Source of the DNA: Patescibacteria group bacterium | GTDB lineage: Bacteria; Patescibacteriota; Gracilibacteria; JAYELJ01 | DNA length: 44,029 bases | Direction: 5' to 3' | Assembly (NCBI GenBank): GCA_034717395.1 | Contig: JAYELJ010000049.1 | Location: 1-44,029 of the forward strand | Shown: positions 7,004-18,862 of the stretch, piece by piece | Layout: every line of letters starts with the position of its first letter | How positions within the stretch are numbered: the stretch's first letter is position 1 | Notes under the pieces: generated by a model | Told to the model about the DNA's origin: nothing | The model's database searches: none | The model's input: only the letters and a program-made list of their open reading frames with translations | Position numbers and translations under genes: made by a program

Positions 7004-7480
7004 ATGAATAAACAACAATCATCACACATATCGATAGAGTCATTATTTCACTATCAAGCCAAGGATTATCTATCTCATCATATGAATGAAATTATTCTAT
7101 GATCTGTAGAAACTATGCTGTGACAATATGATGTCGATAATAAAACCATATACTGATTAAAAACAGTACTCGATGAGCTCTGTAATAATGCATCAGAACA
7201 TGGTTCAGAACCATCCTCTTTTGTTCAATGTAAAATAGGTATTAAGAATAATGTCTTCTATATTACTATTGAAGATCCCGGTGATGGAAAACCAGAATTA
7301 ACACCAAGACAATTGCGTAATTTTATCATTCACAAAAACAAAGATATCCTGAAACATGAATGAAAAAGAGGTCGTGGCCTTACATTCATTGTTAACAAAT
7401 TAGCCGATAGTCTTCATATAACAAAGAGTTCGAAATGAGGTATTAAAATATCTTTTACAAAGAATCTTTTTTCTTCTTAA
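7004..7480 (+). CDS. Anti-sigma-factor-type serine kinase (HATPase_c_2; RsbW/SpoIIAB-like)
   Basis: This gene is absent from the track because it contains 5 in-frame TGAs. The frame is open from ATG 7004 to TAA 7478-7480. N-box, G1 and G2-like motifs are present (ELCNNASEHG, IEDPGDG, GKRGRGLTFI). Confidence 0.6.
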
Positions 7481-7501
7481 TATATAAAATTTCTATTTAC
7501 T

Positions 7502-7867
7502 ATGTCTTCTATAGATATTCAGTTTCAAACAATTGAGAACAAAACAACTCCTACTTATATTATTACTCTTGTGGGGAAATTTGATGAAACAAACATCAGT
7601 GTAAAAGCTCCAGAGATTGATAACTTTATCAGTGAAAATGTCACTGCTGGATCAGCAGTTATATTTGATGTGACAGACCTTTCTTATATAAATAGTAAAG
7701 GTATTGGTTCTTTTTCCGAATGGTATATGACATTGGAATCTCAAAATACTCGTATGATTATCAGCGGTATGTCTGAAGAAATGCGTACTATTTTTGATAT
7801 TGTGTCACTTCTTGATATATTTGAAACATATGACAATAATAATCTTGCTCTCGACTCTATTTCATAA
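7502..7867 (+). CDS. STAS-domain anti-sigma-factor antagonist (RsbV/SpoIIAA-like)
   Basis: Track ORF with a STAS signature (FDVTDLSYINSKGIGSF) that includes the phosphorylatable Ser position. It lies directly downstream of the kinase. Stop is TAA. Confidence 0.7.
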   Translation: MSSIDIQFQTIENKTTPTYIITLVGKFDETNISVKAPEIDNFISENVTAGSAVIFDVTDLSYINSKGIGSFSEWYMTLESQNTRMIISGMSEEMRTIFDIVSLLDIFETYDNNNLALDSIS

Positions 7868-12058: not shown

Positions 12059-13570
<1,512 letters not shown>

Positions 13571-13733: not shown

Positions 13734-13761
13734 ATTCTATAGATATTTTTACAAAAGTCAA
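13734..13761 (-). promoter_or_regulatory. rRNA operon promoter P2 (proximal)
   Basis: On the minus strand the site reads TTGACT, a 16-nt spacer, then TAGAAT. It is preceded by an A-rich tract (gataaaaagttacaaaaag). Confidence 0.5.
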
Positions 13762-13827
13762 AACTTTTTGTAACTTTTTATCAGGCGAACATTTCTTAGA
13801 ATCATCTGCAATTTCAAGTGCCCAGGT

Positions 13828-13856
13828 ATTCTATTAAATTTCCCTACAGATGTCAA
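13828..13856 (-). promoter_or_regulatory. rRNA operon promoter P1 (distal)
   Basis: On the minus strand the site reads TTGACA, a 17-nt spacer, then TAGAAT. It is preceded by gataaaaagatggtaaaaag. It shares the aaaaagttttgac...tagaatac framework with P2. Confidence 0.55.
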
Positions 13857-13901: not shown

Positions 13902-13930
13902 TTGAAAATTACTGATAATTTTGTTATAAT
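13902..13930 (+). promoter_or_regulatory. Promoter of the VirD4-like ATPase gene
   Basis: TTGAAA, a 17-nt spacer, then TATAAT. It lies about 38 nt upstream of ATG 13968 and is divergent from the rRNA promoters. Confidence 0.5.
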
Positions 13931-13967: not shown

Positions 13968-16631
13968 ATGAACGATATTGTTCTTATATCTATATATGTT
14001 GTAACCTGATATAGCCTATGACTATATATAAGTTATCAGGTTATAAAATCTATTGTCTTACTCTACGTTAAAAAAAGAGCTCAAAACAACATTAAGTATC
14101 TACAAGAAGAAAGAGAAAAGATTATCATCAAGATCACCACACCCAAAACAAACAACAAATGACCAAGAATGACAGAGCAACTCCTAGAATCTCTTCACAG
14201 CCTATATAAAGACATATGATTCTGGGAGAGCTTCAAAGGAACTGACTATCAAGAACAATTTTCATTTGAGATTGTTCAAGAAAAAGGGAATATCACTTTC
14301 TATATATGGACATACAATGACCTCTATGAATTCCTTTCAAACCAGATTTATGCTCAATACCCCAATGCTGAAATAGAAATCAGTGATGACTATATAGAAT
14401 CTTTTCGTGATTTTCAATCAGGAGACATGGTAGAACTCGAGCTTGAAGAAAATGAACTTTACCCTGTAAAAACTTTCAATCTCCTACAAGGAGGAAGTAA
14501 AGACGAATCAATTGATTCTTTGTCTGCTCTTCTAGCCCCTCTTTCAAATCTAGACCACAAACAAGAAACTATTATATTTCAATACATATTGACCCCAGAG
14601 CATGAGAAATGGAAAGAGAGCTCTCATAAGCTTGAACTTGCCATTGAAAAACAAGAAACTATAGCAAATAAAATAGCATCAGCATCTAAATTCCCTTTGT
14701 TGCTTAACATAGCCCTTCTCCCTTTCTCTATATTAGTCAAAATTATTCAAAAACTTGGAAAAAAAGAAGAAAACACCGAAGAAGAACAAAAAGAAAGCAA
14801 AGGTCTCAGCGACAAGGACAAAGGAAAGATACAAGCATTACAACAAAAAGAAGAGAAACCAGCATTTAGATGTATCATTAGAGCAGCTTATCTCAGAAAA
14901 GATCAGGATAAATCTTTCTCTAAAACAAAGATGCAGTCTATTACTGGTTCATTTAGACAGTTTAACAGTCAACACAATTCATTCATTCATAAGAAGCCTT
15001 TTCTTAAAGAGGGGCTCTGGGGGAAAAAACGAGATCTATCTTTTAAAGAAATCTATTCATTACTTAAAACACGATCTTTCAATAAACCAGGGATTCTTCT
15101 TAACATCGAAGAGATAGCAAGCGTATATCATTTGCCCAATACAAATGTTAATGTACCGAATATCCAATACACACCATATCAGAAACTTGAAGCACCCGTA
15201 AATCTCCCAACACCAGAAAATACAGATGAAGCTCTTACCATGATGGGATATACCAATTTCAGAAATCAGAAGAAACTATTCGGAATGACACCGAATGACA
15301 GAAGACGACATCTCTATGTCATATGAAAAACAGGTATGGGGAAATCAACCATACTAAGCAACATGATTCATGAAGACATCCAGATGGGACGAGGGGTTTG
15401 TGTTATCGACCCTCATGGTGACCTTGCTGACGACGCATTAGCATCTGTTCCTAAACACAGAGTAAAAGATGTTGTTCTCTTTGATCCTTCTGACCGAGAT
15501 AATCCAGTAGCTCTGAATATGTTTGATAATGAAGACCCTAATAAAAAACCTCTTATTGCCTCTGGTATTGTAGCGGTACTAAAAAAACTCAATGCTGATT
15601 CATGGGGACCCAGACTCGAATATATTCTAAGAAACACTACACTAGCACTTCTCGACTTCCCTGGAAGCACATTTCTTGGAATACTCCGCATGTATACAGA
15701 CGAGTACTTTCGAAACAGAGTGGTTAAGGAAATTCAAGATCCTGTAGTAAAACGATTTTGGATCGAAGAATTTGGCAAGCTAGAACAAAAACAAATATTG
15801 GAACAAGTAGGGTCTATTCAAAACAAAGTAGGACAATTCTTATCTAATTCTATTATTAGAAATATATTAGGTCAGACCAAGAGTAGTATTGATATTCGAA
15901 AAATTATGGATGAAGGGAAGATACTGATTGTAAACCTCTCAAAAGGGAAGATTGGAGAAGATAATGCTACCCTGCTTGGATCTATGCTTATCACAAAAAT
16001 ACAGTTGGATGTAATGGGACGAGCTGACATGAAAGAAGAAGATCGAAAAGATTTCTATCTCTATGTGGATGAATTTCAAAACTTTGCTACTGATTCATTT
16101 GGAACTATACTTTCTGAAGCTCGTAAATACAAACTCAACCTTACCATGGCCAACCAATATGTTGCACAAATGCCTGATTCTGTAAGAGATGCCGTATTTG
16201 GAAACATTGGTTCTATGGTTACGTTTCAAGTAGGTGTAGATGATACCCCTCTATTTGTAAGACAATACGGAGAACAAGTTACAGAGACAGATCTTATGGA
16301 GATCGGGAAATTCAAATACTATACAAGAATGCTTATCAATGGTATGCCATCCAATCCATTCTCTGTTGATGCACTTCCACCACCACGAGATGAAGTGGAC
16401 CATAATACTATTATTGAAGCTATTCGATACTCACGAGACAACTATACAAAAAAATCTTCAGAGGTAGAAGAAGAAATTGATAGCTGGGAGAAAAAATATG
16501 AAGATCCAAAAAAAGGAGAGAAAGAAAAAAAACTTGCTGATAAAAAATCAGCATATGAAGCCAAAAAAGCACAGCTTATTAAAGAAGGGAAATGGGATCC
16601 CGCAGGATTTAACAAAAAGAAAAATGGATAA
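13968..16631 (+). CDS. Membrane-anchored VirD4/TraG/TraD-like (type IV coupling-protein-like) P-loop ATPase with a Lys/Glu-rich tail
   Basis: The frame from ATG 13968 is open through 5 in-frame TGAs and joins track ORFs 14427..15326 and 15336..16631. The N-terminus has a TM helix. TGA 15324-15326 supplies the first Gly of Walker A (YVI-G-KTGMGKST). A Walker B/TraM-recognition-type motif is present (FYLYVDEFQNFAT). Stop is TAA 16629-16631. Confidence 0.7.
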
Positions 16632-16635
16632 ATAT

Positions 16636-16666
16636 AAAAAGCACACAATTTGACTGTGTGCTTTTT
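16636..16666. terminator. Bidirectional terminator between the convergent ATPase gene and hisS
   Basis: Stem aaaaagcacaca / tgtgtgcttttt has a 7-nt loop. A/T runs flank both sides. Confidence 0.6.
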
Positions 16667-16667
16667 A

Positions 16668-17933
16668 TTAATTTATAAACTTATCTGTAAAGAATGGAAG
16701 AATCTCTTCGAAGACTATTCTTTCTTGTGAATTATCTTTCATATCCCTAATTAAAGCATTTCCTTCTATGATCTCCATTTCCCCTAATATTACAGCATAC
16801 TGAGCCTGATATCTTTCTGCTACTAATAGCTGTGACTTGAGCGGTCCAGAACCTAAACTCATCACTGTTTTTATTCCACTATCCCTCATATCATTCATAA
16901 GAGCAAAAGCCTTCTTCTTCGCATTTTCTCATAGTGTTACCAGAAGAACATGAATATCATCCTTATCTTCAACTAAGATATCTTGAGCATGAATAATATC
17001 CATAAGAACATCTATTGATCATGAAAACCCAAACGCTGGAATCTCCTTCGTAGAACCCATCTTTTGAGAAAGAGAATCGTGACGTCCCCCTGTTCCAAGC
17101 AATACAGACATATCTCCTGATGTGTATTTTACTGAAAACACAATATCATTATGATTCTCTAGAGATACAGAAGGAACTCCTTCTGATACATATGGCAATT
17201 CCATAATATCTAAAAAATCCTTAACCTTCTGATAATGATCTTTTGATTTTTTATTAATGTAACTGTCTGATAATGGTGCAAGGTCTGAAAGAATTTTACA
17301 ATCCTCTTCTGCACATGTTAATAAAGAAAAAGGAGATTCTTCTTCCAAAGACTTTCTACAATCATCACATAAGTTTCTTTCTTTTCCTGTATAATAGTTC
17401 ATCAGCGCTAATCGATATTTCTCTTTTGATTTATCATCTCCGAGACTATGTATAACAAACTGAATATTTTCTGCAATACCGAGATCTTGATAGATTTTAT
17501 AGAGAACGCTCATTCATTCTGCTGCAATAACAGGGTCTTTTTGTCCTATAATTTCAAATCCATATTCATAATAAGAACTAATCATATCACCTTCTTTTCT
17601 AAACATTTCTTGTAGATGATATAACTGTACTGGTTGCACCCACTCTTTCATATCGTTCTCTAGATAAGAACGCATAATAGATGTAGGACTACACGAACGC
17701 AAAGCCTGTGTCTTTGAAATAGTACAAATGTTCTCTTTATTTAATACAGACTCTCCTATACCAACAGGCTCTATTCCCGATGTAGTAATCCTACGAAAAC
17801 CTGACTGCCTCATTCTCTTACGCAAATACTTTTTAAAAAAGGTTGCATATTTATGAGCAGAAGGAAGAACATCTCCTGAAACACCTAGTGTCTTTTCATT
17901 CTCTGAATCAATAAGCCGAATATTCTCAGACAT
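16668..17933 (-). CDS. hisS: Histidine--tRNA ligase
   Basis: Four same-frame pieces (track ORFs 17514..17954, 17019..17513 and 16668..16898, plus an untracked piece) are joined by TGAs at 17514-17516, 17019-17021 and 16929-16931. Class II motif 3 is present (GTGGRHDSL....IPAFGFS-G-S). The anticodon-binding domain lies at the C-terminus. Start is ATG 17931-17933 (MSENIRL). Confidence 0.85.
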
Positions 17934-17998
17934 AGTATATATTAAAAATAACAAATAAAACTAATGGTTTGGTATTTATCAATATAGCAAAAATATTC

Positions 17999-18862
17999 TT
18001 ATTCATCAATATGATAATTCGTATTTGTTACAAAAATAGTTTCAATTCATCAGGTATTTAAAGCACTTAGAACTTGATTATGAGGGTGTCTATATATATT
18101 ACCATCTCCAAACTGAATCACTCATGTTTGAGGATCTATATAAGAAAGCCAATCTGCAGAGGAACTAGAAGACGATCCATGATGAGCTAGTTGTAATATA
18201 TCTATATCCAGACCCTCTTGGTACCTATCCATAATGATGGATTCTATATCTTTTGATATATCTCAGGTAAGTAAGATAGCTCTATCATGAAATTGTATCT
18301 TATGCACCAGAGAAGTATTGTTTATATCCGGCACTCTTTTTTGAAATACAGCATGTCAGTCAAAAGGGTACAAAGTATCTATAAAAATATTATCTGATAC
18401 AGATAAGTCATCATTTATATCTCCTTGCACAATATTCATTCCTAGATTTTTTTCTTTTATAGAGGCTGATAGAACATTCTCATACAAAAGACTTTTCTTT
18501 AACACCCCTGTTATATGAAGGTTTTCAATATTGTATGTTTCGAGTAAATACAGCAATCATTCCATATGATCTCTATCTGGGTGACTTATATACACATGTT
18601 CTATGGTTCGATCCCAAAAAGGGATTTCTTTGGATAATGGGTGCGCTATATTTGCATAGGCTCCAGTATCAAATAAAAAATCTGTTCCATCTTCCAATCT
18701 CAACAGAAATGAGTGGCCTTGACCAACAGCTAAGAAGACACCTTTTTCTCTATCTTTTTTATATTCCAAAAAAATGAGAAAGAGAGATGAACAAGAAAAC
18801 AATACTGTTATTAGGATACGAAAACACATAAGAATTAGAAAATTACTATTATTTTTTGACAT
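17999..18862 (-). CDS. Membrane-anchored metallo-beta-lactamase-fold protein of the ComEC/Rec2 C-terminal type
   Basis: Track ORFs 18557..18862 and 18356..18556 continue in frame to TAA 17999-18001 through 6 in-frame TGAs. The N-terminus has a TM helix. Motifs are ISHPDRDHME-G and LQLAHHGSSSSS, as in ComEC beta-lactamase domains. Confidence 0.65.

Follow-up and report, generated by a model that had tools for sequence, protein, structure and literature searches.

A chromosomal coupling-protein-like ATPase with a predicted VirB4-like front, from a core family of Patescibacteria

The gene described here lies in contig JAYELJ010000049.1 of the Patescibacteria assembly GCA_034717395.1, in a stretch of 44,029 nt (the window), where it stands beside an rRNA operon and encodes an ATPase of 887 residues. 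The protein is fairly described as a coupling-protein-like motor on a VirB4-like front. The gene is almost certainly an ordinary member of a core Patescibacteria family that joins a DUF8128 domain to a VirD4/TrwB-like ATPase and whose ancestors probably came, by an old domestication, out of conjugative elements in monoderm bacteria or archaea. As its role we favour, with a probability of roughly 0.45, that of a trans-acting substrate motor for a dispersed, relaxase-less apparatus resembling a type IV secretion system (T4SS). Little is new with this copy; thousands of homologues are known, and their unlinked state has been published (PMC12102498). From the type IV coupling protein (T4CP) homologues reported there the window copy differs in nothing of substance; it uses genetic code 25 and sits alone beside an rRNA operon. 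A sequence-only reading of the window had called the gene an orphan coupling ATPase, chromosomal and possibly repurposed.

Architecture of the protein

The assignment of the C-terminal ATPase to the coupling-protein type, made in that reading, is favoured by motifs, profiles, structures and trees. The Walker A and Walker B motifs are largely invariant among homologues. The Pfam profile TrwB_AAD_bind scores 24.8 bits against a cut-off of 20.5 and TraG-D_C 21.5 against 22, and a sequence search of the PDB with the ATPase returned TrwB and DotL only. In the structure model, helices 524–648 separate the Walker A strand from that of Walker B. The ATPase is sister to TrwB, TraD, PcfC and TrsK in three trees, with support of 86–90; these were quick trees that held no archaeal HerA or CedD sequence, YjgR standing in. 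By PDB sequence search, NCBIfam and tree, T4CPs are the nearest known proteins. TrwB (R388), TraD (F), DotL (Legionella) and PcfC (pCF10) combine, like the window protein, a membrane anchor with a RecA-fold ATPase and an all-alpha insert, and an E-x-R-K-Y motif after Walker B is common to T4CPs and the window protein. Canonical T4CPs usually have two N-terminal transmembrane (TM) helices. The window protein differs in having one predicted TM helix and, between this anchor and the ATPase, a VirB4-like domain of 355 residues, in being only 15–17% identical to T4CPs, and in having no cognate relaxase.

It is very unlikely that the protein is instead a DNA repair or segregation translocase of the HerA or FtsK type, mislabelled as a coupling protein. 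DUF87, the HerA central domain, is the top Pfam match (37.9 bits), but it is promiscuous and also matches the genome's own VirB4 and FtsK, and the domains specific to HerA or FtsK are absent, the predicted N-terminal fold being that of VirB4 instead. None of the FtsK Pfam domains (alpha, motor, gamma) is found on the 887-residue protein, the HAS barrel (PF09378) was not found in the assembly (82% complete, 6% contaminated) and no nurA-like neighbour was recognised in the window; across the phylum, a search for the HAS barrel gave weak matches in frames of 460–490 aa. Archaeal HerA is the top Foldseek row for the full model (E 3.8e-9), but the TM-score, normalised by target, favours TrwB (0.54) over HerA (0.42), and the PDB sequence matches named above do not include HerA. 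The ATPase alone retrieves TrwB, DotL, Cag-beta and HerA with Foldseek. Approximately unbiased (AU) tests temper the coupling-protein assignment, as they do not reject a grouping with the HerA-like YjgR (p 0.11), with FtsK (p 0.40) and with VirB4 (p 0.13). The plasmid relatives described below, which lie in conjugation operons, argue in turn against HerA or FtsK. A role in anti-phage defence was also considered and was rejected, the PADLOC matches being weak and partial (mad8 ~60 bits, HerA < 30) and in no defence context.

Ahead of the ATPase, a region of about 400 residues had been thought to hold no recognisable motif. It proves to be DUF8128 (PF26449), which is found on all of the best 120 of at least 8000 homologues; an N-terminal profile built without the query matches the 887-residue protein at E 1e-71, and for one homologue DUF8128 received 0.95 from Atlas features. 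On the evidence of structure models, DUF8128 has the fold of the VirB4 N-terminal domain. The full-length model (pLDDT 79) places two tandem alpha/beta modules ahead of the ATPase. The domain model and the fold searches used a homologue, P0002, with the query left out, and the fold is transferred by homology; the two proteins are 29% identical in this domain, and the query's full-length model has the same order of strands and helices. The P0002 model (pLDDT 87) matches TrwK residues 32–424 with Z 13.9 (rmsd 4.0, 246 aligned, 7% identity). The fold is assigned because this Z is far above the next (8.3) and because all seven Foldseek matches at E < 0.001 (best 2.3e-5) are R388 T4SS entries that contain TrwK. 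A profile comparison of the DUF8128 domain with the genome's own VirB4 gave no match, and a homodimer prediction for the N-terminal domain of P0002 scored 0.00, which is evidence neither way. DUF8128 is not named in any paper found in the literature searched, and a VirB4-like N-terminal domain is not described in PMC12102498 or PMC10633639. The second and eleventh fold matches of the model are mycobacterial type VII secretion chains, of ESX-3 (Z 8.3) and ESX-5 (Z 6.0); these may hint at a common membrane-proximal fold, such Z values often reflecting chance likeness.

With VirB4/TrwK the window protein shares a tandem alpha/beta N-terminal domain followed by an ATPase, and the Foldseek alignment with TrwK spans about 830 columns. 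It differs from them in that its ATPase matches no VirB4 profile, no virB3 or prgI is adjacent and the genome holds a separate, true VirB4. The VirB4 profiles PF19044, NF045971 and TIGR00929 gave no match with the 887-residue protein; one VirB4 profile is matched, weakly (best E 1e-6), by 34 of 50 homologues.

The N-terminal TM helix noted earlier is well founded: a hydrophobic N-terminal helix is kept in 46 of 49 homologues, and the structure model has a helix at residues 2–48. The Lys/Glu-rich insert and the Lys-rich tail are likewise present in the protein, but neither is conserved, the K/E-rich loop and the tail being the least conserved parts among 49 homologues. The loop is variable, 56% charged and modelled with pLDDT < 50 at residues 265–279; the hydrophobic stretch that precedes it possibly contacts the membrane. 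The tail is conserved in neither length nor sequence, and measures 2–115 aa in sampled homologues. Some homologues (P0005, P0008, P0023) carry an S1 RNA-binding domain (PF00575) instead of the charged tail, and such ends may hint at nucleic-acid contact at the C-terminus.

A core family and its plasmid relatives

At least 8000 homologues have the same architecture, and the named ones are nearly all from Patescibacteria. The best 120 of these are 40–46% identical to the window protein, nearly all over 89–99% of its length, and carry PF26449 ahead of DUF87/TrwB_AAD_bind/TraG-D_C. Among sampled genomes related to the host at class level (none of those sampled is closer), the family is present in 31 of 31 and VirB4 in 29. 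Searched for by itself, the N-terminal domain turns up in 150 of the 151 genomes sampled from the phylum, usually with 2–4 matches each, and is either fused to the ATPase or forms a separate protein of 420–480 aa. In five near-complete class genomes, every family member lies at least 110 kb from virB4 or on another contig. A published survey found VirD4-like T4CP homologues in 2,918 Patescibacteria genomes, 5,713 in all, of which just 148 lie near virB4, and VirB4 in 2,417 genomes (PMC12102498). Relaxases were rare in that survey, with 39 t4cp genes near them; T4SS genes were especially scattered in Gracilibacteria, and exaptation of the T4CP homologues was left open (PMC12102498). The idea that the ATPase was repurposed is plausible, and had already been suggested there.

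Trees separate at least two old Patescibacteria clades, with support of 96 and 99. The first holds the window protein, its class-mates, Saccharibacteria copies that lie behind topA and a sigma70-r4/HARE-HTH gene, and the split forms of other classes; the second holds another DUF8128–ATPase paralogue of the host genome, on contig C69, which is 34% identical to the window protein. SEML1_0293 of Candidatus Southlakia epibionticum (921 aa) has the same three Pfam matches (PF10412, PF12696 and PF01935) and falls in the deep clade of the window protein by gene order (topA, sigma70-r4/HARE-HTH, ATPase) and sizes. The two are not orthologues in the strict one-to-one sense; the closer branch belongs to a second Gracilibacteria paralogue. 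SEML1_0293, its paralogue SEML1_0142 and the T4CP homologues of PMC12102498 resemble the window protein in being of the same phylum, chromosomal, multi-copy, unlinked from virB4 and without a relaxase. Many Gracilibacteria-class genomes have an extra paralogue of 690–755 aa, which begins with DUF8128 and shows no obvious N-terminal anchor; it branches next to the Saccharibacteria copies and stands beside Cys-rich proteins of 545–565 aa in several genomes. This paralogue was not found in the host assembly.

Family relatives occur on 388 plasmids, mainly of Streptomyces, Bacillus, Staphylococcus, Clostridium, haloarchaea and Sulfolobus. These DUF87-annotated coupling proteins (Bacillus, Staphylococcus, Streptomyces/Embleya, haloarchaeal, and ORF1025 of Sulfolobus pNOB8) belong to the same ATPase subfamily at 22–38% identity, and the DUF8128-like N-terminal domain of the Patescibacteria family recurs in Bacillus and Haloferax examples (Peribacillus E 3e-20, B. 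subtilis 6e-18, Haloferax pHV1 1e-8). On plasmids of Peribacillus, B. subtilis, S. aureus and Embleya the gene is followed directly by one for a replication-relaxation (Replic_Relax) protein. This is the slot of a coupling protein, and the architecture would therefore work as one on mobile elements; the pairing with Replic_Relax relaxases also points to a conjugative origin. The conjugation operons of these relatives carry a VirB4-like ATPase of their own, and the Embleya gene comes after prgI and a VirB4-like gene. The Patescibacteria copies, in contrast, are chromosomal and unpaired; the best reading is that they descend from such genes by domestication and loss of the relaxase.

It is most improbable that a conjugative or mobilisable element once integrated beside the rRNA operon and left the window gene behind. 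Its closest relatives outside Patescibacteria are indeed plasmid coupling proteins paired with Replic_Relax, and the 39 Patescibacteria t4cp genes near relaxases would fit such a source, but no integrase, relaxase, cluster of transfer genes or deviant composition was found at the locus. The relaxase families PF13814 and PF03432 were not found in the 82%-complete assembly, other relaxase classes not having been searched, and Replic_Relax (PF13814) is rare, occurring in 2 of 151 class genomes. The ATPase gene has a GC content of 35.5% and a GC3 of 0.28, the same as its contig and typical of the genome; its frame is intact, with its own predicted promoter and terminator and mostly synonymous strain differences, and the ATPase branches with its class-mates. 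Together with its near-universal presence in the phylum, this context agrees with the earlier view of a chromosomal gene outside any conjugative element. The missing relaxase excludes only a conjugative role, because protein-secreting T4SSs also lack relaxases.

A possible motor for a dispersed apparatus and its alternatives

No relaxase, VirB4 or pilin was recognised in the window, in line with the earlier statement, but the gene is an orphan only within it. VirB4 is encoded on contig C66 (NF045971, CD1110-family, 367 bits against a cut-off of 325), downstream of a partial open reading frame (ORF) with no family match, and PrgI on contig C47; T4SS_pilin has 12 matches in the assembly, 10 over the cut-off and several in arrays. 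Also encoded in the assembly are ATPases of the PilB and PilT types, a ComEC in two parts and, on contig C4, a complete FtsK. A search for an adjacent system thus has a divided outcome: no complete T4SS or integrative conjugative element lies beside the gene, but the genome carries a dispersed set of T4SS genes. The ATPase is not an orphan, because these genes and the C69 paralogue lie elsewhere in the same genome and because family members are, as a rule, not linked to virB4. A VirB4 piece on contig C2, 99% identical to the C66 gene, is probably a strain or assembly duplicate and part of the 6% contamination.

As a trans-acting motor, the protein would be anchored in the membrane by its N-terminal helix, whose hydropathy is clear and whose topology is predicted. 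The VirB4-like domain may serve as a membrane-proximal docking platform, as judged from VirB4, and the C-terminal domains, by analogy with TrwB, DotL and HerA, would form a hexameric ATP-driven ring. The motor would recruit substrates in trans for the dispersed VirB4, PrgI/VirB3 and VirB2-like pilins, and the cargo, protein or DNA, might be moved at host contact; the 2–4 paralogues per genome may share or divide this job. A precedent that counts for such a motor is CedD of the archaeal Ced system, where an unlinked VirD4-like motor serves a relaxase-free system in which DNA import is proven (PMC11823120). CedD resembles the window protein as a chromosomal, membrane-bound VirD4-like ATPase that lies away from its VirB4-like partner and has no relaxase; it is unlike it in being shorter (profile 527 aa), and its profile scores 27 bits against a cut-off of 600. 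In S. epibionticum, transposon sequencing showed the T4SS cluster to be essential, and it is described as without a coupling protein in its locus (PMC10633639).

Several observations weigh against this role. The link between the ATPase and VirB4/PrgI comes from co-occurrence of two near-universal genes, which would prove little. In GC content the VirB4 contigs lie at the upper edge of the bin, whose contamination is 6%, VirB4 being nonetheless present in most class genomes, and two class genomes (79% and 100% complete) have the family but no VirB4 match. The conserved neighbours in other classes are housekeeping genes (a secD/secF-sized pair or topA, then the sigma70-r4/HARE-HTH gene), not T4SS genes. 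In S. epibionticum, SEML1_0293 was called non-essential, with normalised reads of 5817, 2940 and 1372 over passages, and SEML1_0142 already scored as essential at the first time point, ahead of most T4SS genes (PMC10633639 Table S1). The reads of the non-essential neighbours of SEML1_0293 were flat or rising (PMC10633639). With one essential and one non-essential paralogue in S. epibionticum, the question is testable now.

A second possibility, clearly less probable than the trans-acting motor but deserving attention, is a T4SS-independent housekeeping motor. The protein would have been exapted to a membrane machine of its own, in which the VirB4-like domain makes a separate VirB4 unnecessary, and would serve chromosome handling, division or budding, or envelope protein export, with small partners such as the sigma70-r4/HARE-HTH protein. 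The presence of a VirB4-like front and a coupling-type motor in one protein would suit this role, as would a distribution wider than that of VirB4 in both the class genomes (31 of 31 against 29 of 31) and the published ones (2,918 against 2,417, PMC12102498), and the exaptation left open in that survey. The linkage to housekeeping and sigma70-r4/HARE-HTH genes is conserved in Saccharibacteria and other classes, and SEML1_0294, the sigma70-r4/HARE-HTH gene of S. epibionticum, is essential (PMC10633639). Such linkage may, however, reflect only slow genome rearrangement. The gene is alone here and in most Gracilibacteria-class loci, where neighbours are not conserved, the HTH partner lies on another contig, and a complete FtsK is available for segregation.

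It is also conceivable, if doubtful, that the family does not serve VirB4 as a coupling protein but is a hybrid VirB4/T4CP motor sufficient in itself, at the core of a near-universal Patescibacteria machine for membrane translocation that has yet to be described; one paralogue is essential in S. epibionticum, the one species tested. The family may then preserve an ancestral architecture from before VirB4 and coupling proteins split. This idea concerns the family and not specially the window copy. The family matters in that it is among the most conserved Patescibacteria-enriched proteins, and in that the epibiont T4SS is essential while its locus is described without a coupling protein. A VirB4-type DUF8128 and Replic_Relax-paired plasmid relatives would, if they hold, sharpen experiments, and the latter suggest a donor.

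A CedD-like importer, which would pull in host or environmental DNA as a nucleotide source or for recombination through a T4SS-like channel or ComEC with type IV pili, is unlikely. Both paralogues lie near halves of the split comEC (the metallo-beta-lactamase (MBL) domain 1.4 kb downstream of the window gene, the membrane part 6 kb from the C69 copy), PilB and PilT ATPases are encoded, and import is the favoured hypothesis for Patescibacteria T4SSs in PMC12102498; the archaeal Ced system (PMC11823120) offers a precedent. Against this stand the CedD profile score given above, the presence of the ComEC-MBL neighbour in only 1 of 20 related loci, and the dispensability of comEC for growth in S. 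epibionticum.

The gene and its locus

The ATPase gene is real and intact. The joined coding sequence (CDS) of about 887 aa proposed by the sequence-only reading is a single open frame under translation table 25, with five in-frame TGA codons (G14, G18, G65, G84, G453) and no other stop; table 11 breaks it into pieces of 299 and 431 aa. The first Gly of Walker A is encoded by TGA codon 453, and its column is Gly in 49 of 49 homologues; the column of codon 65 is Gly in 46 of 49. An annotation under table 11 would cut the gene inside Walker A, leaving two broken fragments. Across the 0.91-Mb assembly, coverage by long ORFs is 81% with code 25 and 60% with table 11. Code 25 and the named relatives of the ATPase (Gracilibacteria, Peregrinibacteria, Peribacteria) place the host in the Patescibacteria class that holds Gracilibacteria. 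A strain variant from another sample has 20 listed differences in the N-terminal half of the gene; 14 of these are synonymous and 15 affect third codon positions, which fits a coding frame under purifying selection. UGA makes up only about 8% of Gly codons in long ORFs of the assembly; among class-mates table 11 prevails, and in some of them a gene of this family contains 20–40 TGA. The assembly, at 82% completeness, yielded no tRNA whose anticodon is UCA.

The gene is monocistronic and lies between the rRNA operon and a hisS paralogue (Table 1); contigs from two brine samples bridge the 5' end of the 16S gene and the ATPase gene. Its predicted promoter is back to back with the promoter-like sites of the rRNA operon and points away from the operon. 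Of the two flanks named earlier, the rRNA operon is correct, but the other is not hisS: it is a degenerate paralogue, 23% identical to the true hisS (contig C103, 432 bits), with the motif 2 region eroded and the anticodon-binding domain kept. Nor does the weight once placed on the rRNA neighbourhood hold. No rRNA was found near the ATPase gene in 20 class loci or 80 phylum loci, rRNA operons being often unassembled; since it is absent from these 100 related loci, the adjacency looks incidental and carries no signal. Neighbours are not conserved in the class loci and the gene stands alone in most, with no virB3, prgI or other T4SS neighbour in 20 of them.

Table 1. Features of the ATPase gene, its product and its surroundings (window coordinates).
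Feature	Position	Strand	Remarks
16S rRNA	12059-13569	-	5' end at 13569, 398 bp from ATPase ATG
Two promoter-like sites of the divergent rRNA operon (13856-13828, 13761-13734)	13734..13856	-	consensus match only
Predicted sigma70-like promoter, TTGAAA-17-TATAAT, extended -10 TG	13902..13930	+	38 nt 5' of ATG; 11/12, consensus match only
CDS, 887 aa, code 25: TM anchor, DUF8128, coupling-protein-like ATPase, charged tail	13968..16631	+	
N-terminal TM helix, residues 4-22	13977..14033	+	two UGA=Gly codons; Kyte-Doolittle 1.8
DUF8128 domain, residues 46-400	14103..15167	+	two tandem beta-alpha-beta-beta-alpha-beta modules; predicted VirB4/TrwK N-terminal fold
Helical insert in second module	14682..14858	+	hydrophobic stretch 239-257, then variable K/E-rich loop 262-297
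RecA-fold ATPase with all-alpha insert, residues 421-814	15228..16409	+	TrwB/TraD-like
Walker A GKTGMGKST, residues 453-460	15324..15347	+	first Gly is a UGA codon
Walker B FYLYVDE, residues 696-702	16053..16073	+	
Lys-rich C-terminal tail, residues 842-887	16491..16628	+	52% charged
14-bp hairpin, A/T runs on both sides	16634..16668	.	likely a terminator in both directions, for this gene and the convergent hisS-like one
Degenerate histidyl-tRNA synthetase paralogue	16668-17954	-	TIGR00442 174.8 bits, cut-off 286.75
Stand-alone ComEC/Rec2 metallo-beta-lactamase domain	17999-18862	-	N-terminal hydrophobic stretch

The sigma70-r4/HARE-HTH gene, which directly precedes the ATPase gene in Saccharibacteria and other classes, is unlinked here and lies on contig C8 (4656-5804 of locus L170). 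ComEC's membrane part is encoded separately, on contig C69. Just past the 5S rRNA, at 7004-7867 (+), lies a pair of genes for an anti-sigma kinase (HATPase_c_2) and a STAS protein.

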